From: an uncultured Planctomycetales bacterium
GTDB lineage: Bacteria; Planctomycetota; UBA1135
DNA: 64,000 nt
NCBI GenBank assembly: GCA_964637165.1
Contig: CAZWVI010000002.1
Location: forward strand, 119,470 to 183,469
Reading direction: 5' to 3'
The notes below the pieces were generated by a model. The model did no database searches. It saw only the letters and a program-made list of their open reading frames with translations, and was not told the DNA's origin. Position numbers and translations under genes: made by a program. Below, one piece after another: positions 27,530 through 42,901 of the stretch. Position 1 is the first letter of the stretch. Each line of letters begins with the position of its first letter.

Positions 27530-28345
27530 TTAGGGCCGCGGCTTAACACCCATTAAGCCACGCCAGGCGCTGTAATAGCGAGTGGCAGCATTAAGTTTTG
27601 GTGGGGTGCGGAATATGTCAAGTTGCGGATCTTCAACCTGATCCAGTAGCAGGCGTGACCTGACAATCGCGGCTCGAAGTCCGCGTCGAAGCCTTGCCCC
27701 AAGATGATTCCTTAAAGTTAGGCCTTCGTTTAGTAGTTCATTTGCCCAACGTGCTTCAGTTGCTAAAAAACGATCGATAGCTGGAGTGCGCACACCTAAT
27801 TTCAATTCATCAAGAGTTAGACCAGCTTTTTTAAGGTCGGAAATTGGTAGCGGAAATTTATCATCTCTAATAAATTCAGGCAATTTGCATAAAACCCAAG
27901 TTAGTGCTAGCCCCATTCCAAACCTCTCGGCAGGAATAATCGCTTCGTCACTTCTTCGACCAGCAACGGATAAGAAACACTTGCCTGTAATCGATGCGCG
28001 CGGAAGTAGCCAGGCCATTAATTCGCCGCGGTTTTGTGGTTGGTTGGGCCACGGTTTATTTAGCAGTTGGGCTAGCTGCCGAATGTCGCAGTGGGGAATT
28101 TCGCCTCCGCGTACGCTACACCAACTTGCCAGCATTAGCGGTCCATCTGGCCGCCCAAGTAACATGTCATTAAGCGAATTGGTGAGTTGCTCTCCGCCCT
28201 TGGGTATAGCATCGAAGGCCAGGGCGAATAGTGGGTCCATTGCGCGCAGCACTGAATGTGGCATAAGGCGCGGGCCAGGATAAAAATCTCCCACGGCCTG
28301 TCGGGCTAGCCTGCCAGCAAAGCGTTGCGAGTGATTCAGGTTCAT
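27530..28345 (-). CDS. Squalene/phytoene synthase-fold protein with degenerate Asp-rich motifs
   Basis: FGMGLALTWVLCKLPEFIRDDKFPLPISDL aligns by eye to the family consensus G.A.QLTNILRD..ED...GR.YLP. The C-terminal DIFRTPPKL also fits. Confidence 0.65.
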   Translation of the reverse strand: MNLNHSQRFAGRLARQAVGDFYPGPRLMPHSVLRAMDPLFALAFDAIPKGGEQLTNSLNDMLLGRPDGPLMLASWCSVRGGEIPHCDIRQLAQLLNKPWPNQPQNRGELMAWLLPRASITGKCFLSVAGRRSDEAIIPAERFGMGLALTWVLCKLPEFIRDDKFPLPISDLKKAGLTLDELKLGVRTPAIDRFLATEARWANELLNEGLTLRNHLGARLRRGLRAAIVRSRLLLDQVEDPQLDIFRTPPKLNAATRYYSAWRGLMGVKPRP

Positions 28346-28423: not shown

Positions 28424-29152
28424 ATGGAAAAAACCGCTGACCACGAGCTGGCCCACTTTGCCCACGACCTGCGAAATCTGCTGACTACTGTAATTGGTCA
28501 TGCCGACTTGCAAGCGGAGAGCCAAGCTGCCGCCGTCGATCCAGCATTGCTGGGCAGTTTGCGTTCAATTAGTGCCTCGGCTAGCCGCGCCGCTGCCCTT
28601 TGTGAGGAAATGCTGGTTCAAGCACGAGATGGCGAGGCCACTCTTGAATTAATTGATTTGAGTGAAGTGGCGAAATCTGCTGGTCGGCTTTTCGAGGCAA
28701 ATATTGACCGGCGGATTAAGTTTGAGCTAATTTTTTGCAATGAGGCCATGGTGCTGGCTGATTTTCATCGCTGCGAGCGGGCGGTATTGAATTTATTGTG
28801 GAATGCGCGTGATGCGGTATTGGCCTCTTTGTCTGACGATGATGGCAATCGAACCGGCAAAATCAGGCTTGAATGCGCCTTTAATGGTGGTTTTGTCGAT
28901 TTGCAAGTGGCGGATTCTGGCGCCGGCCTTCCCGAGGGTCGCATCGGAGACTTGACCTCCGCATTTCGCAGTTCACAACAAGATGATCAAGTCCGCGGAC
29001 TTGGTTTGCACTCGGTGGCGTTTGCTATGGCTAGTTTTAGCGGGAAACTTTTAGGCGACAACAACTCCGAGCAGGGAGGTGCGCGACTCACTTTGCAGTT
29101 GCCGTTCCAAAAAAAACCTAACTCCCTTACAAATACCGCAAATAAAGTCTAA
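28424..29152 (+). CDS. Sensor-less histidine kinase (HisKA + HATPase only)
   Basis: H-box AHDLRNLL at residue 13, N-box LNLLWNARDA, DSGAG, GLGL; no TM or PAS domain. Confidence 0.85.
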   Translation: MEKTADHELAHFAHDLRNLLTTVIGHADLQAESQAAAVDPALLGSLRSISASASRAAALCEEMLVQARDGEATLELIDLSEVAKSAGRLFEANIDRRIKFELIFCNEAMVLADFHRCERAVLNLLWNARDAVLASLSDDDGNRTGKIRLECAFNGGFVDLQVADSGAGLPEGRIGDLTSAFRSSQQDDQVRGLGLHSVAFAMASFSGKLLGDNNSEQGGARLTLQLPFQKKPNSLTNTANKV

Positions 29153-29217
29153 AATAAGCGGTCATTTTGTCCGTACCCTTCGGTCAAATCTAACACCCAA
29201 ACACACCCCACAAAGGC

Positions 29218-31065
29218 ATGACTACCACTGCCGAACAAGATTCCGCTCCTGAGAGCTTAGAGGAAGTTGTAATCCGTTTCGCTGGAGATTCTGGCGATGG
29301 AATGCAGTTAACAGGAACTCAGTTCACTAACACCTCGGCTGCGCTGGGCAACGACCTCGCCACCTTCCCAGATTATCCAGCTGAAATCCGTGCTCCTATT
29401 GGAACGTTGTTCGGAGTTTCTGGGTTCCAGGTGCGCTTCTCAGCCAAGGATATTCACACTCCTGGCGATTCGCCAGACGTGCTAGTAGCCATGAACCCGG
29501 CGGCTCTCAGGGTGAACGTTGACGAACTAAAGCCTGGTGGCTTGTTAATTGTTAATACGGGAAACTTTGGCACCAAGGATTTGGAAAAGGCGAATTACGA
29601 GTCCAACCCATTAGAGGTTGGTGATTTAAGTGAGCGTTTCCAAGTAATTGAGCTCGACCTGAACGAGGCAACTTTGCACGCAACCGCTGAGAGTGGTTTG
29701 TCTAAAAAAGATGCTCTGCGTTCCAAGAACTTGCTCGCGTTGGGAATGCTTTACTGGGTTTACTCGCGACCACTTACTAATACTGAGAACTGGCTCGAAA
29801 CTAAGTTTGGCAAAAAGCCTGATGTGTTGGCGGCCAACTTGGCGGCCTTGCGCGCTGGTCACTCCATCGCCGAAAACTCGGAGTTGTTCCAGACTCAGTA
29901 CCAGGTCGCGCCGGCACCTTTGGAAGCTGGGCTTTACCGCAACATAATGGGTAATGCTGCGACTGCACTTGGTTTGGTTGCCGCATCGCGACTAAGCAAG
30001 TTGCCATTGTTTTTGGGTACTTACCCGATTACGCCGGCAACTGATATTCTGCACGCACTTTCGCGCTATAAGAATTTCGGGGTAGTGACTTTCCAGGCCG
30101 AAGACGAAATAGCTGGAATTTGTACCGCAATCGGCGCATCTTTTGCTGGTTCATTAGCGGTCACGACAACTTCGGGTCCTGGACTTGCGCTTAAGGGCGA
30201 GGCGCTTGGCTTAGCGGTAATTACCGAACTGCCATTGGTGGTGGTTGACGTTCAGCGCGGTGGTCCATCAACGGGCCTGCCTACGAAGACCGAGCAATCA
30301 GACTTGCTCCAAGCAATTTTTGGTCGTCATGGTGAATGTCCTGTGCCAGTAATTGCCGCGCAATCGCCAGCCGATTGCTTTATGGCAGCGATTGAAGCCA
30401 GCAAGATGGCGCTGAAGTACATGACTCCGGTGGTTTTGCTGACTGATGGCTACATTGCCAACGGTGCTGAACCGTTCCGGGTGCCACGCGAAGAGGAGCT
30501 TGAGCGCTTTCCGGTTACTCATCACACCGATGCCGAGAACTTCCAAGCTTACTCACGTGATCCTGAAACTTTGGCACGGCCGTGGGCAGTGCCTGGAACG
30601 CCAGGTCTGGAACACCGTGTCGGCGGTCTTGAAAAAGATGACGACGGCAACGTTTGTTACGACCCTGACAACCACCAACGGATGGTTGAGCTCCGTGAGA
30701 AAAAGGTAATGGGAATTGCTGATTCTTATGAGCCGCTTGAGGTTTACGGCAACAAACAAGGAAAATTGCTTGTGCTTGGTTGGGGGTCAACTTACGGGTC
30801 GATTCGTGGCGCAATTGAAAAAGCACTCCAAGAGGGCAAAGATGTGGCGCAACTCCACTTGCGCAATGTTTGGCCACTTCCACAGGACTTGGGCGAAATC
30901 ATGAGTAATTATGAAACCGTGCTCATCCCCGAAATGAACCGTGGACAATTGTCCCGTTTGATACGCGCTGAATACCTACGCGAAGTTGAAACTTTGTGGA
31001 AGGTAAAGGGGCGTCCGTTCACCACAACTGAAATTAGCGAGAAGATTGAGTCCATCTTGGGCTGA
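29218..31065 (+). CDS. korA: 2-oxoacid:ferredoxin oxidoreductase alpha subunit (gamma-alpha fusion)
   Basis: RFAGDSGDGMQLTG, YPAEIRAP, YPITPAT, QAEDEIAG, TSGPG.ALK, VQRGGPSTG.PTK.EQSD. Substrate specificity cannot be read from sequence. Confidence 0.93.
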   Translation: MTTTAEQDSAPESLEEVVIRFAGDSGDGMQLTGTQFTNTSAALGNDLATFPDYPAEIRAPIGTLFGVSGFQVRFSAKDIHTPGDSPDVLVAMNPAALRVNVDELKPGGLLIVNTGNFGTKDLEKANYESNPLEVGDLSERFQVIELDLNEATLHATAESGLSKKDALRSKNLLALGMLYWVYSRPLTNTENWLETKFGKKPDVLAANLAALRAGHSIAENSELFQTQYQVAPAPLEAGLYRNIMGNAATALGLVAASRLSKLPLFLGTYPITPATDILHALSRYKNFGVVTFQAEDEIAGICTAIGASFAGSLAVTTTSGPGLALKGEALGLAVITELPLVVVDVQRGGPSTGLPTKTEQSDLLQAIFGRHGECPVPVIAAQSPADCFMAAIEASKMALKYMTPVVLLTDGYIANGAEPFRVPREEELERFPVTHHTDAENFQAYSRDPETLARPWAVPGTPGLEHRVGGLEKDDDGNVCYDPDNHQRMVELREKKVMGIADSYEPLEVYGNKQGKLLVLGWGSTYGSIRGAIEKALQEGKDVAQLHLRNVWPLPQDLGEIMSNYETVLIPEMNRGQLSRLIRAEYLREVETLWKVKGRPFTTTEISEKIESILG

Positions 31066-31078
31066 GGAGAATAGAAAA

Positions 31079-32080
31079 ATGACTGTTGAAGCTCCCACCT
31101 ACAAAAAGAAGGATTTCGTTTCGAACCAAGAGGTCCGTTGGTGTCCCGGCTGTGGTGATTACGCCATGCTTTCAAGTATGCAAGGCGTGTTCGCCTCGCT
31201 TGGTGTTCCGAAGGAAAAGTTTGCAGTGGTTGCGGGGATTGGCTGTTCAAGTCGCCTGCCTTACTACATTGATTCTTACGGATTCCACGGGATTCACGGC
31301 CGCGCGCCGGCGATTGCCTCGGGCATTAAAGCGGCAAATCCGGATTTGGATGTGTGGATTGGAACCGGCGATGGTGATGCACTGTCGATTGGTGGTAATC
31401 ACATTATTCATGCTGCTCGCCGTAACTTAAACATGGTTGTGGTGATGTTTAATAACCGAATTTACGGTTTAACTAAGGGTCAGTACTCACCGACTACCGA
31501 GCCGGGAACCAAAACACCGTCCTCGCCATTTGGTAACTTGGACAACCCGTTCAATCCAATTAGCTTGATGTTGGGTGCCGGCGCGAGCTTTGTGGCGCGC
31601 ACGGTTGATGTTCAACCAAAACACATGAAAGAAGTTTTTGCGGCGGCGCATGCGCACCAAGGATTTTCTTTCGTTGAAGTTTTGCAAAACTGTGTCATTT
31701 TTAATGACAAGGTGTTTGAGCATGTTACTGCTAAAGACATACGCAGTGACCGCCAAGTTGATTTGATTCCAGGTCAACCGATGGTTTATGGAAAGGAAAA
31801 GGATAAGGGCTTGAAAATATTGCCTAGTAGCATAGAAGTATGCTCGGCTGAAGATGCTGATAGCTGGAATTCTTCCGGTGAAACTGGCGCAAACGCCTAT
31901 CGCCTCTGCCAAGGAAGCGAAACCGGCGAACTACCAGTACCGATTGGAGTCTTCCGTCAGGTCGATGCTCCGATTCTTGAAAACGACATTCATGCTCAAA
32001 TTGCTGATGCGCGCGAGAAAATGGGGGAAGGAACCCTCGATTCATTGTTGCGGATGGGTGAAACTTGGGAAGTTGAATAA
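31079..32080 (+). CDS. korB: 2-oxoacid:ferredoxin oxidoreductase beta (TPP-binding) subunit
   Basis: WCPGCGD, GIGCSSR, HGRA, GDGDALSIGGNH, NNRIYGLTKGQ.SPT; start placed at ATG 31079. Confidence 0.93.
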   Translation: MTVEAPTYKKKDFVSNQEVRWCPGCGDYAMLSSMQGVFASLGVPKEKFAVVAGIGCSSRLPYYIDSYGFHGIHGRAPAIASGIKAANPDLDVWIGTGDGDALSIGGNHIIHAARRNLNMVVVMFNNRIYGLTKGQYSPTTEPGTKTPSSPFGNLDNPFNPISLMLGAGASFVARTVDVQPKHMKEVFAAAHAHQGFSFVEVLQNCVIFNDKVFEHVTAKDIRSDRQVDLIPGQPMVYGKEKDKGLKILPSSIEVCSAEDADSWNSSGETGANAYRLCQGSETGELPVPIGVFRQVDAPILENDIHAQIADAREKMGEGTLDSLLRMGETWEVE

Positions 32081-32089
32081 GCACCAAAC

Positions 32090-32503
32090 TTGTACTTCGA
32101 TTACCTAAACGTTCTGGTATTCCTGCTTGCGGGAATGTCCTTCGTTGTCCTCAACATGGTTGTGGGCGCGTTTTTGCGACCTTCACGCAAAGACGACGAG
32201 GGCTTGGAACCGTATGAGTGTGGCGAAGAACCGATTGGTGATAACACTTTTCGTTTCGATATTCGTTATTACACTGTAGCTTTGGTTTACGTGGTGTTTG
32301 CGGTCGAAATTGCGTTTTTGTTTCCATGGGCGCGAGTGTTAAAGGAAGCATTTGCCGATCCTGAGATTGGCGGGGTGGCCTTGTTCGAGGGGTTAATTTT
32401 CGTGGCCATTTTGTTGTTGGGCCTTGCCTATGTATGGGTGAAGGGCGACCTCGATTGGGTGCGCAGTTTCCAAGGACAAAAAAAATTAGGTGAGGAAGAA
32501 TAG
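32090..32503 (+). CDS. nuoA: Complex I subunit A
   Basis: PYECGE loop, [14 protein letters not shown], three TMs. Confidence 0.93.
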
Positions 32504-32505
32504 TT

Positions 32506-33039
32506 ATGGGTTTGCTTAACGAAAAGTTTAGTGAGAACTTAATCACCACTCGGGTGGATTGGTTATTGAATTGGGCGCGTTTAAGTTCACTTTGGCCAAT
32601 GACTTTTGGTCTGGCGTGTTGCGCGATTGAAATGATGGCGGTCGGCGCCGCACGATTTGATATTGACCGCTTTGGCGCAGGCGCATTTCGTGCGACTCCG
32701 CGTCAAGCTGACTTAATGATTGTTGCTGGAACAGTAAACTTTAAAATGGGTGAACGGGTCAAGCGTTTGTATGACCAAATGGCCGAGCCTAAATACGTAA
32801 TAGCGATGGGTGCCTGCGCCACCGGCGGCGGACCTTACTACGAATACGGCTACACCGTAATGAAAGGTGTCGATCGAATTATTCCAGTTGATGTGTTTAT
32901 TGCTGGCTGCCCGCCACGTCCGGAAGCATTGCTTGAGGGGTTGATGATGCTTCAAGAAAAAATCCGCCGGCAGGATGTTTTGATTAAACCCGAGTTTCCG
33001 CCTTTGCCTGAAACTTCAACCGAAGAAGTAGTAGCTTAA
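32506..33039 (+). CDS. nuoB: Complex I subunit B (N2 cluster)
   Basis: [35 protein letters not shown]. Confidence 0.96.
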
Positions 33040-33043
33040 AATT

Positions 33044-33634
33044 ATGCCTGAAACCGGATGGGGCCCAATGGAGAATTTGTTCGCAGCCGCGAGCAAAGTT
33101 TGCGATTCATTAAATAGCTCCGGTTGGGAAGTTGAGTTGAATCAACCGAACTTGCCAGTGTTTGCGCCAGACGATGAGGCTAAGCGCCTTAAGAAAAAAG
33201 CGCGTGAAGAGAATCCGGAATTTGAATGGCGCGGTGACCCGTGGATTTTATTAAAGGACCACTTGGCGATTGCCGATGTTTGTCAGCACCTGCGCGATGA
33301 GCTTGGCTGGGAGCAAATAATTGATGTGACCGCCATGGATTTTGATGCTGAAGATTCAGACTTGTGCGGCGTTTACCAATTCTTGTCGCTGTCTTTGAAG
33401 GCGCGCCTAACTATTGAAGTACGCATTCCTAAAGATGCGTGCCAAATTCCAAGTGTCGCGAAAATTTATCCTGGCGCGGACTGGCACGAGCGTGAAGCTA
33501 TGGAAATGTTCGGCATCACTTATGAAGGGCACCCTGACCCGCGCAACATTTTGTTGCCAGATGCTTGGGAAGGCTTTCCTTTGCGCAAGGACTATCAGTT
33601 CCCTGATGAGTACAACGGAGTGTCATGCAAGTAG
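33044..33634 (+). CDS. nuoC: Complex I subunit C
   Basis: ADWHEREAMEMFGI.YEGHPDPRNILLP..WEGFPLRKDY. Confidence 0.93.
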   Translation: MPETGWGPMENLFAAASKVCDSLNSSGWEVELNQPNLPVFAPDDEAKRLKKKAREENPEFEWRGDPWILLKDHLAIADVCQHLRDELGWEQIIDVTAMDFDAEDSDLCGVYQFLSLSLKARLTIEVRIPKDACQIPSVAKIYPGADWHEREAMEMFGITYEGHPDPRNILLPDAWEGFPLRKDYQFPDEYNGVSCK

Positions 33635-34776
33635 CCGATAACGAACGTCTAGTTGAACTTGATGTCCGGACTCAGGATGTTGAAATCAATATGGGACCAC
33701 AACACCCGGCTACCCACGGGGTGTTGCGAGTTTTGCTGCGCGCCGATGGCGAAATCTTGACCGGTGCCCAATCCCACTTGGGATATCTGCACCGCTGCGC
33801 TGAAAAGATTGGCGAGAACGTTGATTGGATTCAGTACTTGCCGTACACCGATCGCTACGACTACCTATCAGCGATGAATAACAATCTTGGTTATTCTTTA
33901 GCGGTAGAAAAATTGTTGGGTCAAGATGCACCACCCCGCGCTCAATATCTGCGCGTGATACTCGCCGAATTAAACCGTATCGCCAGCCACTTGGTCGCGG
34001 TCGGAACTTACGGATTAGACATTGGTGCATTTACTCCCTTCTTTTACGCATTGCGTGAACGCGAAACGATTCTTGATCTTTTCGAAAAGATTTGCGGCGC
34101 GCGCTTGACTTATACATTTATCCGTCCAGGTGGATTAATGAACGATGCGCCCGAAGGTTGGTTAGAACAAGTTGCCGAGTTCTGTGAAATTCTCGATGAG
34201 AAGTGGCTTGATTACTGGAACTTGTTGGTTGAAAATAAAATCTTCATCGAACGTACTGCAAATGTTGGTGTGGTTAATGAGGAGCAAGCGATTGCTTGGG
34301 GCTGTACGGGTCCAATGCTGCGCGGCTCTGGAGTTGATTGGGATTTGCGTCGCGACCAACCCTACTTGGTTTACGACGAGCTTGATTTCGATGTGATTGT
34401 CGGCAAAGGCTATCGCGGTGAAGTCGGCGATTGTTTTGACCGCAACTACGTGCGTATGTTTGAAATGGTGCAATCGAATCGCATGATCAAACAATGTTTA
34501 GCCCAGATGCCTAAAGGTGAAGTGCAAAACGAAAATGTTGGCATGACATTGCAAGTACCACCGGGTCGTGCTTATGTTGGAATTGAAAATCCACGCGGCG
34601 AACTCGGTCACTGGCTGGTCAGTAACGGCGACAAGATTGCCAAGCGTTGCCGGGTGCGTGCTCCTTCATTCGTAAACTTAGCCTTAGTTGAGCATATGTT
34701 GCCAGGTTGCATGTTGGCAGATGCCGCTGCAATTATTGGCTCAGTTGATATCGTAATCGGAGAAACCGACCGATGA
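33625..34776 (+). CDS. nuoD: Complex I subunit D
   Basis: NMGPQHPATHGVLR, GYLHR..EK, DRYDY, TGPMLRGSG, ENPRGELG, D..IGETDR. Confidence 0.95.
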   Translation: MQVADNERLVELDVRTQDVEINMGPQHPATHGVLRVLLRADGEILTGAQSHLGYLHRCAEKIGENVDWIQYLPYTDRYDYLSAMNNNLGYSLAVEKLLGQDAPPRAQYLRVILAELNRIASHLVAVGTYGLDIGAFTPFFYALRERETILDLFEKICGARLTYTFIRPGGLMNDAPEGWLEQVAEFCEILDEKWLDYWNLLVENKIFIERTANVGVVNEEQAIAWGCTGPMLRGSGVDWDLRRDQPYLVYDELDFDVIVGKGYRGEVGDCFDRNYVRMFEMVQSNRMIKQCLAQMPKGEVQNENVGMTLQVPPGRAYVGIENPRGELGHWLVSNGDKIAKRCRVRAPSFVNLALVEHMLPGCMLADAAAIIGSVDIVIGETDR

Positions 34777-35807
34777 TTGAAAACCTCTTCTTCGCTGTTA
34801 TTGGTTTCGCGATTTGGATGGGTTTAGTCTCAGTGATCGCGATTGTGGCGGTGTGGCTTGAGCGAAAAATTGCCGGCCACATTCAAGTTCGCTTTGGACC
34901 AATGTATGTTGGCGGTTGGCACGGGTGGGCTCAATCCTTGGCCGATGGAATTAAATTAATTTTGAAGGAAGATGTCATCTTGAAAGATGCCGATCGCCCT
35001 TTATTTAAACTCGCACCATCAATTGTATTGGGCGCAGCGATGGCGGCTTTTGTGGCGGTGCCACTTGGCCCCGGAATTGTTGCGGCTGATATCGATTTAG
35101 GAATCTTCTTTATTCTTTCGGTAACTTCTCTGTGCACCATCGGCGTCCTTATGGCCGGTTGGGGTTCTTACAACAAGTGGAGTCTTTACGGCGCGATGCG
35201 CGAAGCGGCGCAGGTCGCTTCCTATGAAATTCCACTTGGCCTTTCATTGATGATGCCAGTTATGTACTACGGCACTTTTTCATTAAGTACTGCCGCCGAA
35301 GCCCAGTCAGGGTGGGGCGGAATGCATTGGTATTTGTTCAGTGATTCATTTTGGTTGGCGATTCCATCTTTTATTCTGTTTTATACTGCAGCCCTAGCTG
35401 AAACGAAACGCGCCCCATTCGATTTGCCCGAATCAGAATCGGAATTGGTCGCAGGTTTTCATACGGAATATTCTGGGATCCGTTTTTCCTTCTTCTTCAT
35501 GGAAGAATACGCCGCGATGTTCTTGATGTCGGCGGTCGGCACCGCCTTCTGGTTCGGCGGCTGGAACTTCCCAGGTCTTTACTTGCTGGAAGGAACACTT
35601 CTTTATTACCCAATCGCAATTGCAATTTTTGTAACTAAGGCAATGTTCTTAGTGATGACAATGATGTGGGTGCGGTGGACGGTTCCGCGGATTCGCATCG
35701 ACCAAGTAATGACTGTCGGTTACAAGTACTTGACACCACTCTGCCTCATCCTAATTCTGTTCGCCTCAGTTTGGGAATACTTAAAAGCAATGGTGTTCAC
35801 CGGATAA
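34773..35807 (+). CDS. nuoH: Complex I subunit H
   Basis: ERKIAGHIQVRFGP, QSLADGIKL, SYEIP, AETKRAPFDLPESESELVAGFHTEYSG, PRIRIDQ. Confidence 0.96.
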   Translation: MIENLFFAVIGFAIWMGLVSVIAIVAVWLERKIAGHIQVRFGPMYVGGWHGWAQSLADGIKLILKEDVILKDADRPLFKLAPSIVLGAAMAAFVAVPLGPGIVAADIDLGIFFILSVTSLCTIGVLMAGWGSYNKWSLYGAMREAAQVASYEIPLGLSLMMPVMYYGTFSLSTAAEAQSGWGGMHWYLFSDSFWLAIPSFILFYTAALAETKRAPFDLPESESELVAGFHTEYSGIRFSFFFMEEYAAMFLMSAVGTAFWFGGWNFPGLYLLEGTLLYYPIAIAIFVTKAMFLVMTMMWVRWTVPRIRIDQVMTVGYKYLTPLCLILILFASVWEYLKAMVFTG

Positions 35808-35811
35808 TCTC

Positions 35812-36408
35812 ATGAGCAATAACTTGTTAGAACCGGAAGGTCGCGCCAATCAGCGAAGTTGGTGGGGCAATATTGTGGATGCTTTTAATTCCACAGTAGC
35901 TGGAATGAAAATTACTTGGCGGCACCTTTGGTCGAAGCCAGTAACTGTTCAATACCCCGATGAGAAACCGCAAATTGATGGTCGTTATCGTGGCGTTCAT
36001 TACCTAGAGCAAGATCTGTGCATTTATTGCCAAGCTTGTGCTAAAGCATGCCCAGTCGATTGCATCGAAATGGTCGCTGACCGGCACGGCAAAGAGTTGG
36101 AGTGGCAACAATTCACTTTGGATTACCAAAAGTGCATGTTCTGCGAATTGTGTGTTTACCCGTGCCCAAAGGATTGCATCCACATGGGTGACGAGTATGT
36201 TTACGTTTCTGAAGACCGCACTGATTTGGTTAAGGAATTGTTGACTTACACAGGCTTGACCGAAGAACAAAAAGTTCGCATTGCTGAGGCTGAAGCCAAG
36301 AAGGCCGCCAAGAAGGCTGCGGCCGCGGCCAAGAAAGCCGCAGCGGCTGCCGAAGCCGCCAAGCAAGAATCAGCAGACTCAAAGCCGGAGGATAAAACAG
36401 ATGGGTGA
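35812..36408 (+). CDS. nuoI: Complex I subunit I (2x[4Fe-4S]) with an Ala/Lys-rich C-terminal tail
   Basis: TVQYPDE, CIYCQACAKACP, CMFCELCVYPCP. Confidence 0.93.
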   Translation: MSNNLLEPEGRANQRSWWGNIVDAFNSTVAGMKITWRHLWSKPVTVQYPDEKPQIDGRYRGVHYLEQDLCIYCQACAKACPVDCIEMVADRHGKELEWQQFTLDYQKCMFCELCVYPCPKDCIHMGDEYVYVSEDRTDLVKELLTYTGLTEEQKVRIAEAEAKKAAKKAAAAAKKAAAAAEAAKQESADSKPEDKTDG

Positions 36409-36910
36409 AATAACGGCATTCTGGTTTTTCGCAATTCTCACAATTGGATGCGCACTGCTTTCCTTGTTCCACCGCAACGTTGTGCATAGCGCGTTTGCCT
36501 TGATGGGAACATTGGTTGGAGTCGCTGGATTGTTTTTGTGTTTAGGAGCCGACTTCTTGGCAATGACCCAAATCTTGGTTTATGCCGGTGGTATTTTAGT
36601 TTTAATCCTGTTTGGATTAATGCTAACCAAGCCCGAGCCTAACGAACGTAAGCTTGGAAAGATCTGGGGAAATTTTGCGCTACTTGCAGTAATCGCAATG
36701 TTGTTCCGCGAAAAGTGGACAGGTACTTGGAATCAAATCGCCAGCGAAGACTTGGCGACACCCGTGGCCACCGCGCGCGAAATCGGCTTAGAGCTTTTGC
36801 GTCGCGATTCATGGTTGTTAGCCTTTGAATTTGCCTCGGTGATTTTGTTGGCCGCACTAATCGGTTCAGTTTACATTGCGCGCCGTCGCTTTAACCGAGG
36901 AGAAATGTAA
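36401..36910 (+). CDS. nuoJ: Complex I subunit J
   Basis: NVVHSAF, QILVYAGGILVLILF, FEFASVILLAALIG; start placed at ATG 36401. Confidence 0.92.
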   Translation: MGEITAFWFFAILTIGCALLSLFHRNVVHSAFALMGTLVGVAGLFLCLGADFLAMTQILVYAGGILVLILFGLMLTKPEPNERKLGKIWGNFALLAVIAMLFREKWTGTWNQIASEDLATPVATAREIGLELLRRDSWLLAFEFASVILLAALIGSVYIARRRFNRGEM

Positions 36911-37221
36911 TGGGACTTTCCGCTTACCTTTCCGTTGCCGCATTACTTTTTATCATCGGCTTGGTGATGGTTGCCTCGCGCAGGAATTTAATTTACGTTC
37001 TAATGGGACTTGAATTAATTCTTAACGCCGCCAACATTAACTTTATTGCATTCAATCGTTTTAACCCAGATGCGGCAACCAACTTGGACGGCAACTTGGC
37101 TGCTATGTTTGTAATAATCCTCGCCGCTGCCGAAGCAGCAATTGCTCTGGCGATTGTTTTAAACGTTTACTCTCTGTTCGACACTGTACGCCCCGATGAC
37201 ATCGACGGCATGAAAGACTGA
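36910..37221 (+). CDS. nuoK: Complex I subunit K
   Basis: RRNLIYVLMGLELILNAANINF, AAAEAAIALAI. Confidence 0.95.
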   Translation: MGLSAYLSVAALLFIIGLVMVASRRNLIYVLMGLELILNAANINFIAFNRFNPDAATNLDGNLAAMFVIILAAAEAAIALAIVLNVYSLFDTVRPDDIDGMKD

Positions 37222-37222
37222 T

Positions 37223-39370
37223 ATGTTTATTCCATCTGAAGAACACGGGCTTTCATCAAACGCTTGGGCATGGCTGATGGCGGTGCCATTATTGCCACTT
37301 GCTGGATGGTTGTTGCAAGTTTTCTTTGGCCGCAAATTTCCACGCCAAGGCGACTGGTTGCCAACCACCACCATGGCCGCCGCCGCAGGAATTGCCATCT
37401 GGCACTTCATTCAAGTATTGGGCATGCACGCCGAACCGGCCGCCGGTGAATGGTTAGTTAATCATTTATCCAACGCGCCAAGCTGGAAATTCTTTTCGAG
37501 CAATCCTGATTTCACAACCGGTCTTGCTGGATTTAAGGCTGGATTCCTTTACGACAACCTCTCGGCATCATTGCTGGCGATGGTCGCATTGGTTTCCTTC
37601 TTAGTGCATTTATTCTCAGCCGGATATATGCAAGGGGATAGCCGCTACAACATCTTCTTCTCCAACCTGTCGCTGTTTAGTTTTGCGATGTTGGGGCTGG
37701 TACTTAGCGACAATTTATTCTTCTTCTTTGTCTTCTGGGAAATTATGGGTTTGTGCTCTTACTTGTTGATTGGCCACTTGGCCCTCGACAAAAAAGCACC
37801 ACGCCAACAAGCTGCTTGGGCAAGCCTTAAAGCCTTCATGACCACGCGGATTGGCGATGTCTGTTTATTCATCGGTATGATGATGATGTGGAAAGCCTTT
37901 GGCACACTAAGTTTTAGTGGCTTGTACGCCGCCGTTAGTGAACATGTTGCAGCCAACGGTTGGAATGGCTTATCTGCCGATGGTGAAAACCTTCACCTAA
38001 CCGCCGCCGGAGTAATGATGTTCCTCGGTGCAGTTGGTAAATCAGCGCAGTTCCCGCTGCACGTGTGGTTGCCAGATGCCATGGAAGGTCCAACTCCAGT
38101 TAGCGCAATGATCCACGCCGCAACCATGGTTGCGGCCGGTGTTTACCTAACTGGTCGAATCTTTCTGTTGATGTCTCCCGAAGCGCAATTAGTGGTTGCA
38201 CTGATTGGTGGCTTTACCGCCATCTTTGCCGCGACCATTGGTATCACTCAATTCGACATTAAAAAGGTTCTAGCTTATTCAACCATTTCACAACTCGGCT
38301 ACATGATTTGTGCAATCGGAGTTGGCGGAGTCGCGGCCGGCTTATTTCACATGCTAACTCACGCTTTCTTCAAGGCGTGTTTGTTCCTTGGCTCCGGCTC
38401 AGTTATTCACGGCTGCCACCATGAACAAGACATGCGCAAGATGGGGGGCTTACGCAAAAAAATGCCAATCACATGGATAACCATGTTGGTTAGTACTTTG
38501 GCAATTTCAGGCGTACCATTTTTCGCTGGTTACTATTCCAAAGATGCCATCATTGCGAAAACATTAGAACGCAGTATGGTTGAAGGAAGTTGGCTGTGGT
38601 CAGCGCCCTTCTACTTGTTAGTAGCCGCCGCAGCGATTACCGCCTTCTATATGTTCCGTCTGATTTTTATGACCTTCCATGGTGAGGCGCGTAGCCATTC
38701 ATCTGAAGAAGCCCATGAATCACCGTGGACTATGACCGTGCCGTTGATGGTGCTTGGTTTGCTCGCAATTCTCGGTGGAAAGTTCTGGATCTTAGATCCA
38801 CTCCATGCAATTTCTGGTGGGGAGCACCCATGGTTCTTGCACCTAGTCGCCAACCCAATTGGATTTGGTGCCGCGGCCGTGAACGTAACTGAAACTCAAG
38901 TGCACCATGCTCACCATAGTGCAATGATTATTAGTTTGATTGCTGCTGGGACTGGAATCTTGTTGGCCTGCTTGTTCTACCTTTGGAAAGTGTTCAACGC
39001 CGATAAATTGGCCAATGCCCTTGGCGCTTTATACCGCTTAGTATTGGACAAGTATCGCTTCGATGAACTTTACCAAAAGACTTTCATCCGTTGGACTACC
39101 CAGCTAAGTACTTTGCTTTACTGGGTCGACCGCAACATCATCGATGGGGTGGTCAATGGAGTCGGTGCAATCATGCATGGCTTCAGCAAACTCTCTGCCG
39201 CCGCCGATCGCAACATCGTCGATGGTCTAGTTAATTTGGTTGGCGAAACTACGGTTTCCGCCGGCCAACTTGTGCGCCGGTTACAGACCGGCCGCATTCA
39301 GCAATACGCGTACATGACCTTTGTCGGTGTCGCGCTAATCGCCGCAGTCGTTCTGTTGGAACTCATCTAA
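37223..39370 (+). CDS. nuoL: Complex I subunit L
   Basis: WEIMGLCSYLLIG, TRIGD, GKSAQFPLHVWLPDAMEGPTPVSAMIHAATMVAAG, KKVLAYSTISQLG. Confidence 0.96.
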   Translation: MFIPSEEHGLSSNAWAWLMAVPLLPLAGWLLQVFFGRKFPRQGDWLPTTTMAAAAGIAIWHFIQVLGMHAEPAAGEWLVNHLSNAPSWKFFSSNPDFTTGLAGFKAGFLYDNLSASLLAMVALVSFLVHLFSAGYMQGDSRYNIFFSNLSLFSFAMLGLVLSDNLFFFFVFWEIMGLCSYLLIGHLALDKKAPRQQAAWASLKAFMTTRIGDVCLFIGMMMMWKAFGTLSFSGLYAAVSEHVAANGWNGLSADGENLHLTAAGVMMFLGAVGKSAQFPLHVWLPDAMEGPTPVSAMIHAATMVAAGVYLTGRIFLLMSPEAQLVVALIGGFTAIFAATIGITQFDIKKVLAYSTISQLGYMICAIGVGGVAAGLFHMLTHAFFKACLFLGSGSVIHGCHHEQDMRKMGGLRKKMPITWITMLVSTLAISGVPFFAGYYSKDAIIAKTLERSMVEGSWLWSAPFYLLVAAAAITAFYMFRLIFMTFHGEARSHSSEEAHESPWTMTVPLMVLGLLAILGGKFWILDPLHAISGGEHPWFLHLVANPIGFGAAAVNVTETQVHHAHHSAMIISLIAAGTGILLACLFYLWKVFNADKLANALGALYRLVLDKYRFDELYQKTFIRWTTQLSTLLYWVDRNIIDGVVNGVGAIMHGFSKLSAAADRNIVDGLVNLVGETTVSAGQLVRRLQTGRIQQYAYMTFVGVALIAAVVLLELI

Positions 39371-39382
39371 GCGTTTCTCAAA

Positions 39383-40927
39383 ATGCTCGAAAACCACCTA
39401 CTTTCGCTCATCACCTTCATGCCATTAATCGGCATGGTGATGATTCTGATTACCCCGCGCGAGCAAGTCAACGCCATTCGTTGGATTTCCGCTTTAGCCA
39501 CGGGTGCCACTTTAGTGTTGACCACCTACTTATTGTTTGGTCCCTTTGACACTGCAGTTGCAGGAATGCAACTTACGGAAACCGCCAATTGGATTCCGGC
39601 CTTCAACATCAAATATCAATTAGGAATTGACGGCCTCTCATTGCCGTTGGTCTTTCTGTCGACGCTAATTCACTTCATTGCAGTGTTTTCCTCGTGGTCG
39701 ATTAAAAAATCGCCAAAGGGTTATTTCGCATTGTTGATGTTGCTTGAAGTCGGGGTGAACGGAGTATTTGTCGCAACGGACTTCTTCCTGTTCTACGTGT
39801 TCTGGGAAATCATGTTGCTCCCGATGTACTTCCTAATCGGAATTTGGGGTGGCAAACGCCGTGAATACGCAGCAATTAAGTTTTTCCTCTACACCTTGGC
39901 TGGTTCGGTATTAATGCTAATCGCCATGATTGCGGTTTGGCTTAAGTCAGGCGGCTACGACGGCGGAACTTTTGACATCATTGCCTTACAACAAATGGCA
40001 CCGCAATGGGCGGCTGATGCGACCACCTTCTTAGGAATGAAATTCACTACTTGGATTTTCTGGTTCCTATTCATTGGTTTCGCAATCAAAATTCCAGTCT
40101 TCCCATTCCACACCTGGCTTCCAGATGCGCACGTCCAAGCGCCGACCCCGATATCGGTAATTCTTGCGGGCATCTTGCTAAAGCTTGGAGCATACGGAAT
40201 GTTGCGCATCAACTTCCCGCTGGCTCCCGACGCCTTCCACACTTTTGCTTATGCACTAGCAGTGCTTGGAGCGATTAACGTGGTCTATGGCGCATACGTC
40301 GCGATGGGGCAAACCGACTTCAAACGTATGGTTGCCTACTCCTCGGTTAGCCACATGGGTTACTTCCTCGTCGGCGTTGGCGCGATGGGAATTGCCGGGG
40401 TCTCTGACGGCGCCGCATTCACTGCCCTAAACGGCGCAGTACTACAGCTGTTCACTCACGGAACCTCCTCAGCAATGTTGTTCCTCTTGGTAGGTGTGAT
40501 TTACGATCGCGCCCATCACCGCGACCTCAACAACTTCGGCGGCCTTGGTCGCGTGATGCCGTGGTACCTCGGCATGTCCATCGTGGGCTTCTTCGCCGCG
40601 CTAGGCTTGCCCGGCATGAGTGGCTTTATCTCCGAAGCAATGACCTTGATGGGGGCTTACGAAGCCTACCCAGTATTGGTAATCATTAGTACCTTGGGAA
40701 TTTTGATGACCGCGGCCTTTTTGCTTTACGCGATTCAAAGAGTCTTCCTGGGCAACACCCCCGACAAATATTTGGACTACAAAGATTTGTCAGGCCGTGA
40801 ACTTTTCTGTCTAGTTCCATTCGCAGCACTTTGTATTGCAGTTGGAATTTTCCCAACTATCATCTTGGATGTAATGGCCAGTTCACTGGAGCTATTGCAA
40901 ACTAGCTTGATGGTGCAGGTGGGCTAA
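39383..40927 (+). CDS. nuoM: Complex I subunit M
   Basis: FWEIMLLPMYFLI, IKIPVFPFHTWLPDAHVQAPT, KRMVAYSSVSHMG. Confidence 0.96.
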   Translation: MLENHLLSLITFMPLIGMVMILITPREQVNAIRWISALATGATLVLTTYLLFGPFDTAVAGMQLTETANWIPAFNIKYQLGIDGLSLPLVFLSTLIHFIAVFSSWSIKKSPKGYFALLMLLEVGVNGVFVATDFFLFYVFWEIMLLPMYFLIGIWGGKRREYAAIKFFLYTLAGSVLMLIAMIAVWLKSGGYDGGTFDIIALQQMAPQWAADATTFLGMKFTTWIFWFLFIGFAIKIPVFPFHTWLPDAHVQAPTPISVILAGILLKLGAYGMLRINFPLAPDAFHTFAYALAVLGAINVVYGAYVAMGQTDFKRMVAYSSVSHMGYFLVGVGAMGIAGVSDGAAFTALNGAVLQLFTHGTSSAMLFLLVGVIYDRAHHRDLNNFGGLGRVMPWYLGMSIVGFFAALGLPGMSGFISEAMTLMGAYEAYPVLVIISTLGILMTAAFLLYAIQRVFLGNTPDKYLDYKDLSGRELFCLVPFAALCIAVGIFPTIILDVMASSLELLQTSLMVQVG

Positions 40928-40929
40928 TC

Positions 40930-42420
40930 ATGCCTGAAGCAATGTCATACCTAGACGCAATTAAGCACATCTTCCCTGAGCTCGCAATGACTTGCGCTTT
41001 GTGTTTGGTGTTGGTTTGGGAGATGGCCTTTCCGAAACGCAATGGTGAGAAGGCAATTCTTACCTTAGGCTTCTTGGGCATAACTTCGTGGTTGTTAATT
41101 CAACGACTGAATTGGCACCCGGCGACCGTGTTTGGAATGGTGCGAGTCGATTACTTCGCCACTATCTTTAAATTGTTTATTGTCGCCTGCACTGCGTGCG
41201 TGGTGATTTACGACATTCAGGACCGCCGCCACCAAGGTGCCGGCAAAGGCGAAACGTGGTTCCTACTGCTAACTGCATGTTTGGGCAGTTTCTTCCTGGT
41301 TGGCACAACTCACATGTTGTTGCTGTATCTTGGATTAGAAACGCTTGGCTTGTGCTCTTACGCCTTGGCAGGAATTCACAAACGCGATCGCCTCGGAGCC
41401 GAAGCCGCCCTCAAATACGTGATTTACGGGGCGCTGGCCTCGGGGGTCATGTTGTTTGGAATAAGTTTGCTGTATGGATTGAGCGGCTCTTTAGATGTGC
41501 GCGATATGACTTCAATGGTCGCCACACTTTCGGCTGATGGCCGCATTGCTGAACTCTTCCTCCCAACATTAATGTTGTTGGTGGGATTCGGATTCAAGTT
41601 GTCACTGTTCCCATTTCAATGGTGGGCACCAGATGTTTACCAAGGTGTTTCAACTCCGGTTGCGGGCTTTCTAGCAGTTGGTTCAAAAGGTGTCGCCTTA
41701 GCGGCAATGATTAGAATTTTTGCGGTGTTGTTTGGCGAGTTGATTCCGTTGAATAATGGTGTAATCGCTGATGCCGACTTTATGCAAATTCTGATTGTAT
41801 TACTTGGTGTGCTTGCAGCCGTCACAATGATTTTCGGCAACTTGGCAGCTTTACGCCAAGACAATTTAAAGCGCATGTTGGCATATTCGTCAATTGGCCA
41901 CGCGGGATACATGTTGGTCGGAGTAAGTTTAATGACACCGTCCGGCTTTGAAGCGGCCTTGCTTTACGCATTGGTTTACTTTCCAATGACCTTAGGTGCA
42001 TTTGGCGCGATTCAATATTTCGCTAATCAAAGTGGCACAGAAAGTATTAGTGGCCTTAAAGGGCTTGGCTTTAAACACCCAATTGCTGGTGCCGCTACGA
42101 TTGTTTTCTTGGCGGCCTTGACTGGTCTGCCACCAACGGCTGGTTTTGCCGGAAAGTTATATCTCATGACCGCCGCCTGGGATGGTGGCATGTTTGTTTT
42201 GACTTTAATCATTGCCTTGATGTCTGTGGTGTCATTGTTCTACTACTTCCGCATTGCCAAGGCCTTGTATCTTGCGAAAGAGAAAACAACCGCGTCGGTT
42301 GTTTCATTGCCATTAATGAGTGGACTTTTAACTTTGTTAGCCGCCGCCACCATTTACTTCATGGACTTTGATTTGTTAGTTGCAGTTGCTAAGAGTGGTA
42401 TCATTAGCATGAACTTTTAG
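40930..42420 (+). CDS. nuoN: Complex I subunit N
   Basis: EAALKY, FKLSLFPFQWWAPDVYQG, KRMLAYSSIGHAGY, GLPPTAGF.GK. Confidence 0.95.
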   Translation: MPEAMSYLDAIKHIFPELAMTCALCLVLVWEMAFPKRNGEKAILTLGFLGITSWLLIQRLNWHPATVFGMVRVDYFATIFKLFIVACTACVVIYDIQDRRHQGAGKGETWFLLLTACLGSFFLVGTTHMLLLYLGLETLGLCSYALAGIHKRDRLGAEAALKYVIYGALASGVMLFGISLLYGLSGSLDVRDMTSMVATLSADGRIAELFLPTLMLLVGFGFKLSLFPFQWWAPDVYQGVSTPVAGFLAVGSKGVALAAMIRIFAVLFGELIPLNNGVIADADFMQILIVLLGVLAAVTMIFGNLAALRQDNLKRMLAYSSIGHAGYMLVGVSLMTPSGFEAALLYALVYFPMTLGAFGAIQYFANQSGTESISGLKGLGFKHPIAGAATIVFLAALTGLPPTAGFAGKLYLMTAAWDGGMFVLTLIIALMSVVSLFYYFRIAKALYLAKEKTTASVVSLPLMSGLLTLLAAATIYFMDFDLLVAVAKSGIISMNF

Positions 42421-42432
42421 AAATCACTAAAT

Positions 42433-42476
42433 AAAAAAATGGTCAATACCTTTTTAGGGTATTGACCATTTTTTTT
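42433..42476. terminator. Bidirectional intrinsic terminator ending the kor-nuo operon
   Basis: AAAAAAATGGTCAATACC...GGTATTGACCATTTTTTT inverted repeat with A/T tracts on both sides, between convergent genes. Confidence 0.9.
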
Positions 42477-42487
42477 GAGAACAAGCT

Positions 42488-42901
42488 CTAGCGACTGCAG
42501 CGGTGCCCATGCGAGGAGTTCCGCCCGTGCTGGCTCCGCATTTTGCGGTGCATTTTTTGCATTTTCATCATTCCGCGGCGGCCCATTTTTCGACTGCGCA
42601 TTCCATGAACCATGCGGCGCGATCCTTTTTGGCTGCGCATTCCGCGTTGCCCGTGTTGACTGCGTTGCATACCGCGTTGTCCATTACGCATGCGCGACTT
42701 CATACCGCGTTGCTGGCCACCACGCTGCGATTTGCGCGCTTGTTGGCCGCGGCGATTGCCACGATATTGCCGGCCCTCTTGTGCTTGATGGTGCGGTTCA
42801 CAGTCTTGTTTTTCCGCCCGGTGGTGGTGGTGGTGATGCTCTGCTGGCTCTTGAGGAAGCGCCGCACAGGGCATGAAAGCTAGAATTACAGTAATTAACA
42901 T
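42488..42901 (-). CDS. Secreted low-complexity His/Arg/Gly/Met/Gln-rich protein
   Basis: ATG start, signal-peptide-like N-terminus, HHHHHH tract and QRGM repeats; flanked by a terminator. The opposite-strand ORFs look like shadows. Confidence 0.65.
   Translation of the reverse strand: MLITVILAFMPCAALPQEPAEHHHHHHRAEKQDCEPHHQAQEGRQYRGNRRGQQARKSQRGGQQRGMKSRMRNGQRGMQRSQHGQRGMRSQKGSRRMVHGMRSRKMGRRGMMKMQKMHRKMRSQHGRNSSHGHRCSR

Follow-up and report, generated by a model that had tools for sequence, protein, structure and literature searches.

A two-subunit 2-oxoacid oxidoreductase and an 11-subunit complex I lacking NuoEFG share a predicted operon in an uncultured planctomycete

Which enzyme supplies the electrons when a bacterial complex I has no NuoE, NuoF, or NuoG? 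The question is raised by a locus of an uncultured marine Planctomycetales bacterium (assembly GCA_964637165.1), in which the genes of a two-subunit 2-oxoacid:ferredoxin oxidoreductase (OFOR), korA and korB, run directly into those of an 11-subunit, "headless" complex I (Nuo). The locus lies in a window of 64,000 nucleotides (nt), which is the whole stretch of DNA analyzed here (contig CAZWVI010000002.1, positions 119,470 to 183,469, forward strand) and to which coordinates refer unless another contig is named. The assembly comprises 2.45 Mb in 38 contigs and is 89% complete; its nearest named relatives are the marine Planctomycetota metagenome-assembled genomes (MAGs) Arabian9_MAG_53 and UBA7888. 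Good evidence, genomic rather than biochemical in kind, indicates that ferredoxin would feed this headless Nuo, and a shuttle from KorAB through a soluble ferredoxin to Nuo is the mechanism we consider moderately probable.

Thirteen tightly packed genes occupy 29218-42420 (+) in the order korA-korB-nuoABCDHIJKLMN (Table 1), and Pfam assigns every open reading frame (ORF) as the initial annotation had named it. Read in the sequence, all 12 junctions are overlaps or gaps of at most 13 nt. The gaps measure 13 nt between korA and korB, 9 nt between the korB stop and the nuoA start (the distance first annotated), and 2, 4, 4, 1, 12, and 2 nt at nuoA/nuoB, nuoB/nuoC, nuoH/nuoI, nuoK/nuoL, nuoL/nuoM, and nuoM/nuoN, respectively, while nuoC/nuoD, nuoI/nuoJ, and nuoJ/nuoK overlap by 10, 8, and 1 nt. 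The overlap of nuoD with nuoH, a 4-nt ATGA, likewise reads as annotated, and there is therefore no space for nuoE, nuoF, or nuoG at that position. Two starts were re-set from the sequence: korB from TTG 31046 to ATG 31079, which has GGAG 8 nt upstream, and nuoJ from TTG 36281 to ATG 36401 on the basis of its start codon and ribosome-binding site. The nuoA start is kept in four relatives (TTG here and GTG in genome G138, both leading to MYFDY), and the korB-nuoA spacers in this comparison are 9, 22, 22, and 40 nt. The claim that one terminator closes the unit rests on a single strong hairpin downstream of nuoN, with a folding energy of -24.2 kcal/mol and a z of -6.4, which none of 200 shuffled sequences equals. 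A generic terminator scan missed this hairpin and is uninformative, its own matches not being above chance (31 versus 25 expected). Sigma-70-like matches are not enriched in the region either (8 versus 17.7 expected), and the one near korA is weak (29126-29155); both generic scans, being at or below chance, were not used as evidence. As judged from this layout, korAB and nuo are most likely co-transcribed as one unit.

Table 1. Genes and signals of the korAB-nuo unit
Feature	Coordinates	Strand	Assignment and features
korA (615 aa)	29218-31065	+	Fused gamma/alpha subunit of a two-subunit 2-oxoacid:ferredoxin (acceptor) oxidoreductase; Pfam POR + POR_N + PFOR_II
korB (333 aa)	31079-32080	+	Thiamine pyrophosphate (TPP)- and [4Fe-4S]-binding beta subunit; Pfam TPP_enzyme_C
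nuoA	32090-32503	+	TTG start; Pfam Oxidored_q4
nuoB	32506-33039	+	Pfam Oxidored_q6; N2 ligands: CCAIE at residue 38, C104, GCPP at 134
nuoC	33044-33634	+	Pfam Complex1_30kDa over residues 75-188 only; charged N-terminal insertion
nuoD	33625-34776	+	Complex-I-type quinone-site subunit; Pfam Complex1_49kDa
nuoH	34773-35807	+	Pfam NADHdh; start within nuoD stop overlap (ATGA)
nuoI	35812-36408	+	Pfam Fer4; 2x[4Fe-4S], two CxxCxxCxxxCP motifs; Ala/Lys-rich C-terminal tail
nuoJ	36401-36910	+	Pfam Oxidored_q3
nuoK	36910-37221	+	Pfam Oxidored_q2
nuoL	37223-39370	+	Pfam Proton_antipo_M/N + NADH5_C; NF005141 630 bits, cut-off 556
nuoM	39383-40927	+	Pfam Proton_antipo_M
nuoN	40930-42420	+	Pfam Proton_antipo_M
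Intrinsic terminator hairpin	42433-42475	.	20-bp stem, A7-stem-loop-stem-T8; could work bidirectionally
Spacer upstream of korA (65 nt)	29153-29217	+	Sole promoter room unless there is readthrough from the histidine kinase gene
aa, amino acids.

KorA scores 676 bits against the NCBIfam model TIGR03710 (OAFO_sf; cut-off 483), and its best solved structure, matched over the full length with 298 bits, is 6N2N, the KorA of the Magnetococcus 2-oxoglutarate:ferredoxin oxidoreductase (OGOR). KorB has no ferredoxin (delta) domain by Pfam; its residues C22, C25, C56, and C205, along with a GDGD motif, are invariant in 16 homologs. By their likeness to those of MmOGOR, the four cysteines are presumably the ligands of a single [4Fe-4S] cluster. 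The pair thus shows the architecture of the two-subunit OAFO_sf/MmOGOR type, namely, (i) an alpha subunit uniting gamma, alpha, and domain II, (ii) a TPP-binding beta subunit, and (iii) no delta subunit. At E<=1e-30, korB is the only KorB-type match in the genome. The substrate of KorAB is presumably 2-oxoglutarate, an assignment supported indirectly because no E1 of a 2-oxoglutarate dehydrogenase (OGDH) was found in the genome.

Each of the 11 Nuo subunits (NuoA to NuoD and NuoH to NuoN) has a Pfam match above cut-off. The Q-module is predicted from its motifs to be catalytically intact and of the quinone type, on the strength of the N2 ligands of NuoB, the 4Fe-4S motifs of NuoI, and the motifs of NuoD. 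NuoD carries GPQHP, exceeds the cut-off of TIGR01962 (467 versus 459 bits), and scores 363 bits with the mitochondrial/bacterial 49-kDa subunit versus 310 bits with cyanobacterial NdhH. NiFe cysteine motifs are absent, on which ground a hydrogenase identity is rejected.

The missing NADH module is not a matter of the operon alone. The initial annotation described a complex without this module and named nuoEFG encoded elsewhere and co-purifying with the complex as a finding that would tell against its reading; a search for the NuoE, NuoF, and NuoG domains (PF01257, PF01512, and PF10588) found none in the 2.45-Mb assembly, with control genomes positive, and NuoD is present only once. The C-terminal domain of OGDH E1 was not found in the assembly either, and the E1-alpha of another 2-oxoacid dehydrogenase is present. 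A complete nqrABCDEF set with apbE is encoded, and NADH therefore has its own quinone reductase, the Na+-translocating Na+-NQR. A cbb3 oxidase is represented by a fused CcoN-CcoO of 780 amino acids (COX1 + FixO; contig C2:207427-209769 (+), ~24 kb past the window end), followed by a CcoG-like Fe-S protein. Motif searches recover two citrate-synthase-like ORFs and one SucD, and the GHAGA motif, which is common to ATP-citrate lyase and SucD, marks only SucD in the genome. With no OGDH E1, a single-copy korB, citrate synthases, and no second GHAGA protein, the tricarboxylic acid (TCA) cycle needs an oxidative KorAB. The genome thus describes a respiring heterotroph in which Na+-NQR would oxidize NADH, and in which an outlet would be needed for the ferredoxin reduced at the 2-oxoglutarate step.

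This inventory bears directly on the reverse operation of the system, in which the proton motive force would drive electrons from quinol through Nuo to ferredoxin and KorAB would act as a 2-oxoglutarate synthase by reductive carboxylation of succinyl-CoA. OGORs of the KorAB type are reversible, the nearest relative of known structure (6N2N) belongs to an organism with the reductive TCA cycle, and certain complex I variants of autotrophs have been proposed to send electrons back to ferredoxin. However, the GHAGA search leaves only SucD, the oxidative cycle would be broken without a forward KorAB since no OGDH was found, and the citrate synthases, NQR, and cbb3 oxidase point to respiratory heterotrophy. 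Moreover, NuoM is single, with no duplicated copy of the kind tied to reverse-flow proposals. Of all the readings weighed here, we give reverse operation the slimmest chance.

In the favored ferredoxin shuttle, KorAB would be the only 2-oxoglutarate oxidizer of the cell (2-oxoglutarate + CoA -> succinyl-CoA + CO2) and would have a small ferredoxin, acidic and soluble, as its electron acceptor. The genome search for ferredoxins advised at the outset supplies an obvious candidate: an FdxA-like 7Fe ferredoxin of 88 amino acids on contig C10, with 20 acidic residues and 1 basic residue. The 11-subunit Nuo would re-oxidize this carrier at the NuoI/NuoC/NuoB face, exposed in the absence of NuoEFG, and electrons would travel through the two NuoI clusters to N2 in NuoB and on to quinone at NuoD/NuoH, with protons pumped by the antiporter-like NuoLMN subunits. 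NADH would be oxidized separately by Na+-NQR, the cbb3 oxidase would serve as the terminal acceptor enzyme, and a single korAB-nuo transcript would balance the supply of reduced ferredoxin with the capacity to re-oxidize it. We infer that the carrier is a ferredoxin, that it is most likely the C10 protein, and that electrons flow forward. A second OFOR-type protein (521 amino acids; contig C7:61773-63338 (+)) carries a 2x4Fe-4S ferredoxin domain at its N terminus, fused to a beta domain that binds TPP, and is a potential further source of low-potential electrons.

The initial annotation had KorAB replace the NADH module, either through ferredoxin or directly. Coupling of an OFOR to Nuo through ferredoxin agrees with the recurrent linkage described below and with the lack of an NADH module; direct replacement fares poorly. 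In the latter case, KorAB would dock on the NuoI/NuoC/NuoB face as a substitute input module, and the resulting 2-oxoglutarate:quinone oxidoreductase would be bound to the membrane and do without free ferredoxin. The gene order and the 9-nt korB-nuoA spacer do put KorAB at the position of an input module, and KorB, which lacks a delta domain and has a single [4Fe-4S] cluster, depends on an Fe-S protein outside KorAB, such as the 2x[4Fe-4S] protein NuoI. The same question has been posed for the fqo/oor cluster of Thermoproteus tenax (PMC3189178), and two soil metagenome contigs (L056 and L060) carry nuoB-nuoCD-nuoI' near korAB without membrane subunits. Against these points, KorA (615-635 amino acids) and KorB (330-349 amino acids) do not differ in length between linked and unlinked genomes, for which reason a docking-specific extension is rejected, and the KorAB tree shows the linked enzymes to be ordinary, vertically inherited copies. 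The NuoI tail and the other Nuo parts are unchanged in lineages with a distant kor, and most relatives carry the same Nuo clade without linkage. The second OFOR-like enzyme, having its own ferredoxin domain, likewise requires an electron outlet, and the genome encodes the soluble acidic ferredoxin. Nor is KorAB likely to be a dedicated substitute module, as it is the only KorAB of the genome and the TCA cycle needs it. Direct docking is, on balance, improbable.

The C-terminal tail of NuoI (~45 amino acids, AEAEAKKAAKKAAAAAKKAAAAAEAAK; encoded at 36282-36408, AKKAAKKAAAAAKK...) might appear to be the docking element. It is conserved in the planctomycete families f1, f2, f14, f21, and f48 (loci L014, L034-L041, L046, and L047) and extends through the whole planctomycete 11-subunit clade, with or without kor linkage; neither the 14-subunit NuoI of G256 nor the kor-linked NuoI of G256 and G004 has it. 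A correlation of the Lys/Ala tail with kor linkage is thus rejected, and the tail appears to be a clade feature and not a KorAB-specific adaptor. Being basic, it could plausibly attract an acidic carrier. A more specific proposal, that KorAB is attached to the NuoI/NuoC face, perhaps via the basic tail and the charged NuoC insertion, and founds a new class of bacterial complex I input module, strikes us as more doubtful still; if true, the attached KorAB would be a 2-oxoglutarate:quinone oxidoreductase with protons pumped straight from a TCA-cycle step. The ferredoxin shuttle is favored over docking because the tail is clade-wide, KorAB lengths are equal, and both a soluble ferredoxin and a second OFOR are present.

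The synteny check proposed with the initial annotation finds the linkage conserved in relatives and recurring independently. Of 301 sampled Planctomycetota genomes, KorB was matched in 245 and NuoB in 219; linkage was recognized by comparing coordinates by eye and then retrieving the loci. Co-directional korAB and nuoA-N occur in (i) the genome of the window (G000), two close relatives, and G138 of the same family, (ii) G053 and G018 of another family, and (iii) G256 and G004, whose nuo and kor belong to a different lineage, such that the kor-nuoA linkage spans three Planctomycetota lineages. The order korB-nuoA-B-C-D is also seen beyond Planctomycetota, in a Flavobacteriaceae MAG. In G191, korAB and nuo are divergent neighbors. 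In all examined members of this Nuo clade, nuoD leads directly to nuoH, and many relatives of the same order additionally carry a canonical Nuo copy with NuoF beside NuoD.

The NuoB, NuoD, and KorA+KorB trees follow taxonomy. Family f1, linked save for the basal G286, is sister to the unlinked f2, and the linked f21 branches separately; since unlinked G286 and f2 lie between linked groups in trees that track taxonomy, the kor-nuo fusion arose at least twice from vertically inherited genes. A single transferred kor-nuo cassette for all linked cases is rejected for f1 and f21 on the same trees and is plausible for G256 and G004. In these two genomes (loci L023 and L027), KorAB and the linked headless Nuo are long-branch outliers relative to their own family, and a canonical NuoF-containing complex I is also present, which suggests a horizontally acquired cassette.

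Two other arrangements were seen in passing. G271 has a divergent two-subunit OFOR directly upstream of nuoA and co-directional with it (L037 5046-7656 (-)), with an alpha subunit of 601 amino acids (POR + POR_N) that is 22% identical to KorA and a beta subunit of 289 amino acids; a comparable additional OFOR lies close to the divergent korAB and nuo of G191. In the soil contigs L056 (561-7000) and L060 (225-7017), korA-korB is preceded, at a distance of ~950 nt, by nuoB, a nuoCD fusion, and a gene resembling nuoI, all in the same orientation. Neither nuoA nor nuoH was found in these stretches, and L056 has no co-directional gene before nuoB; what accompanies KorAB here is a Q-module that lacks a membrane arm. 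L060 has two small ORFs in the interval from nuoI' to korA; with no Pfam match and no transmembrane segment, they were dismissed as looking like high-GC noise.

A conserved and independently recurring linkage fits functional coupling, with the OFOR as supplier of low-potential electrons. It might also reflect co-regulation alone, with korAB and nuo sharing a respiratory/TCA regulon while another donor feeds Nuo or while Nuo works as a cation/proton antiporter. Most genomes with both systems have no linkage, the genome has other ferredoxin-reducing enzymes, and an antiporter role has been proposed for the headless NDH-I of Prevotella (PMC6560451). On the other hand, the Fe-S ligands and quinone-site motifs are all conserved, which points to a redox enzyme, and the fusions are independent and specifically with OFOR genes (those of KorAB in three lineages of planctomycetes, and those of another OFOR in G271). 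OFOR genes in or beside such operons are also found in an archaeon and in Zixibacteria (PMC3189178, PMC3903129). This specificity makes generic co-regulation hard to accept as the cause, and we regard it as unlikely.

Several observations weigh against the ferredoxin shuttle or parts of it. The genome is 89% complete, and the absence of NuoEFG and OGDH is consequently not absolute. No ferredoxin gene was found in or beside the operon, the only 4Fe-4S protein of <=260 amino acids in the window region being NuoI. KorA passes only the subfamily model "2-oxoacid:acceptor", and the 2-oxoglutarate equivalogs score below their cut-offs. Linkage is a minority state, seen in ~6 of the ~100 planctomycete genomes that have both systems, and is therefore dispensable for whatever both enzymes do. 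Among the best 80 metagenome KorB loci, none of the 63 assessable contigs has korB followed by nuoA, and the notion that the arrangement is general among KorAB relatives is rejected. G138 encodes a stand-alone NuoE-NuoF fusion of 527 amino acids (2Fe-2S_thioredx + Complex1_51K + SLBB + NADH_4Fe-4S; L042 5545-7128 (+)); its neighbor is an M16 peptidase, the headless nuo operon lies far away, and no counterpart was found in the genome of the window. Finally, we know of no measured ferredoxin:quinone activity for a bacterial headless Nuo outside the cyanobacteria (see also PMC6560451 and PMC11238625).

To our knowledge, the NDH-1 of cyanobacteria and chloroplasts is the only headless complex I for which ferredoxin oxidation has been shown both biochemically and structurally. 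Ferredoxin binds near NdhI of this complex (PMC12170339). Cyanobacterial NDH-1 has the phototroph-specific subunits NdhS, V, O, and others, whereas the planctomycete operon holds no extra gene (no NdhS/V/O search was made); its subunits also fall below the NdhH (359 versus 583) and ndhI (82 versus 302) cut-offs. The Fpo/Fqo models are likewise missed (FpoD 339 versus 600, FpoI 68 versus 180, and FpoL 465 versus 1050), and no FpoF-like gene was found in the 13-gene unit. In Campylobacterota, a 2-oxoacid oxidoreductase likewise reduces a low-potential carrier, flavodoxin, that feeds a non-NADH complex I, as reported by Weerakoon and Olson 2008 (cited in PMC4453560 and PMC11238625); there, two other genes stand in place of nuoE/F and nuoG is kept, whereas the nuoD-nuoH overlap leaves the position empty here, with no NuoG domain in the genome.

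The closest precedents are clusters of OFOR genes with a headless complex I, a kind to which the present unit belongs, its OFOR abutting an 11-subunit operon on the same strand. In T. tenax (TTX_0203-0215; Siebers et al. 2011, PMC3189178), 2-oxoacid oxidoreductase genes likewise accompany an 11-subunit-type complex I without NuoEFG/FpoF, and its authors asked whether the oxidoreductase (OOR) is a separate soluble enzyme or an input-module replacement. That cluster is archaeal and Fqo-like, with the oor genes mid-cluster and an OorD (delta) subunit, while the planctomycete unit is bacterial, has a complex-I-type NuoD, and places a two-subunit KorAB without delta upstream of nuoA. Zixibacteria RBG-1 (Castelle et al. 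2013, PMC3903129) also clusters an 11-subunit complex I with oxoglutarate: and pyruvate:ferredoxin oxidoreductases; its OGOR is placed in the TCA cycle, it has no ATP-citrate lyase, and ferredoxin is the proposed donor (PMC3903129). The cluster of Zixibacteria is large and loose and includes NfnAB and Mvh/Hdr, in contrast to a compact unit of 13 genes holding korAB and nuo only.

Headless NDH-1 of Bacteroidota, Chlorobi, and Ignavibacteria (Prevotella, PMC6560451; Ignavibacteria-like MAGs, PMC6338057) has the same gene set and order, with D followed by H. The Bacteroidota type likewise coexists with an NADH-oxidizing Na+-NQR, as in Prevotella (PMC6560451), and its donor is presumed to be ferredoxin, a common inference for headless 11-subunit Nuo (PMC6338057, PMC4453560). 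The planctomycete Nuo is another lineage, its NuoD being ~47% identical to the copy of the Flavobacteriaceae MAG, with C and D as separate genes and a planctomycete-specific Lys/Ala tail on NuoI; korAB linkage is not described in PMC6560451 or PMC6338057. The same chain from OFOR via ferredoxin and headless complex I to menaquinone has been proposed for Desulfitobacterium, where it is backed by rotenone inhibition and by proteome co-expression of pyruvate:ferredoxin oxidoreductase (PFOR) and ferredoxin with the rotenone-sensitive 11-subunit enzyme (PMC11238625). This organism is a strictly anaerobic Firmicute, with PFOR as the donor enzyme and no genetic linkage. Mycobacterium tuberculosis (PMC2773412) likewise uses a two-subunit KorAB to complete the oxidative TCA cycle of a respirer and has the FdxA-type 7Fe ferredoxin family in its genome; the mycobacterial Nuo, by contrast, has 14 subunits, and its genes are not joined to korAB. 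Literature searches found no published description of a korAB-nuo operon in Planctomycetota. The concept of a ferredoxin-fed headless complex I and similar clusters are thus already published, and what is new is the occurrence in Planctomycetota, the compact 13-gene form, and its independent evolution.

For the donor to the widespread headless complex I of non-photosynthetic bacteria, the operon names a concrete pathway that can be reconstituted from KorAB, FdxA, and Nuo membranes. The case is a clean one: NADH has NQR, OGDH is absent from the assembly, the oxidase is of the cbb3 type, and the fusion arose independently in several lineages. If the coupling is true, aerobic marine planctomycetes would gain extra proton pumping at the 2-oxoglutarate step relative to an NADH-linked OGDH, and the reasoning would extend to many relatives that carry the same Nuo clade without linkage. 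The short-term impact is limited, as the organism is uncultured and the idea is not new.

The flanks of the unit hold three further ORFs. Between the nuo terminator and a DAO-family gene lies an ORF of 137 amino acids (42488-42901 (-)) with no Pfam match; it sits in repeat-rich DNA, overlaps plus-strand ORFs, and may not be a real gene. Upstream, the gene of a short histidine kinase that consists of HisKA and HATPase_c and lacks a sensor domain (28424-29152 (+)) ends 65 nt before korA. The two closest relatives have it as well (42-48% identity), but G138 does not; there, an SQS-like gene directly abuts korA. The corresponding gene of the window, a squalene/phytoene-synthase-family member (27530-28345 (-)), is divergent from korA; Pfam SQS_PSY covers its C-terminal half only, and the HpnC/HpnD models score far under cut-off. 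Neither in family f21 nor in unlinked genomes did a search around nuo find it, and it keeps its position beside korA in L003, L004, and G138 (51-56% identity). The eukaryotic protein NDUFAF6 is a member of the squalene/phytoene synthase family, and a role of the planctomycete gene as an assembly factor is conceivable.

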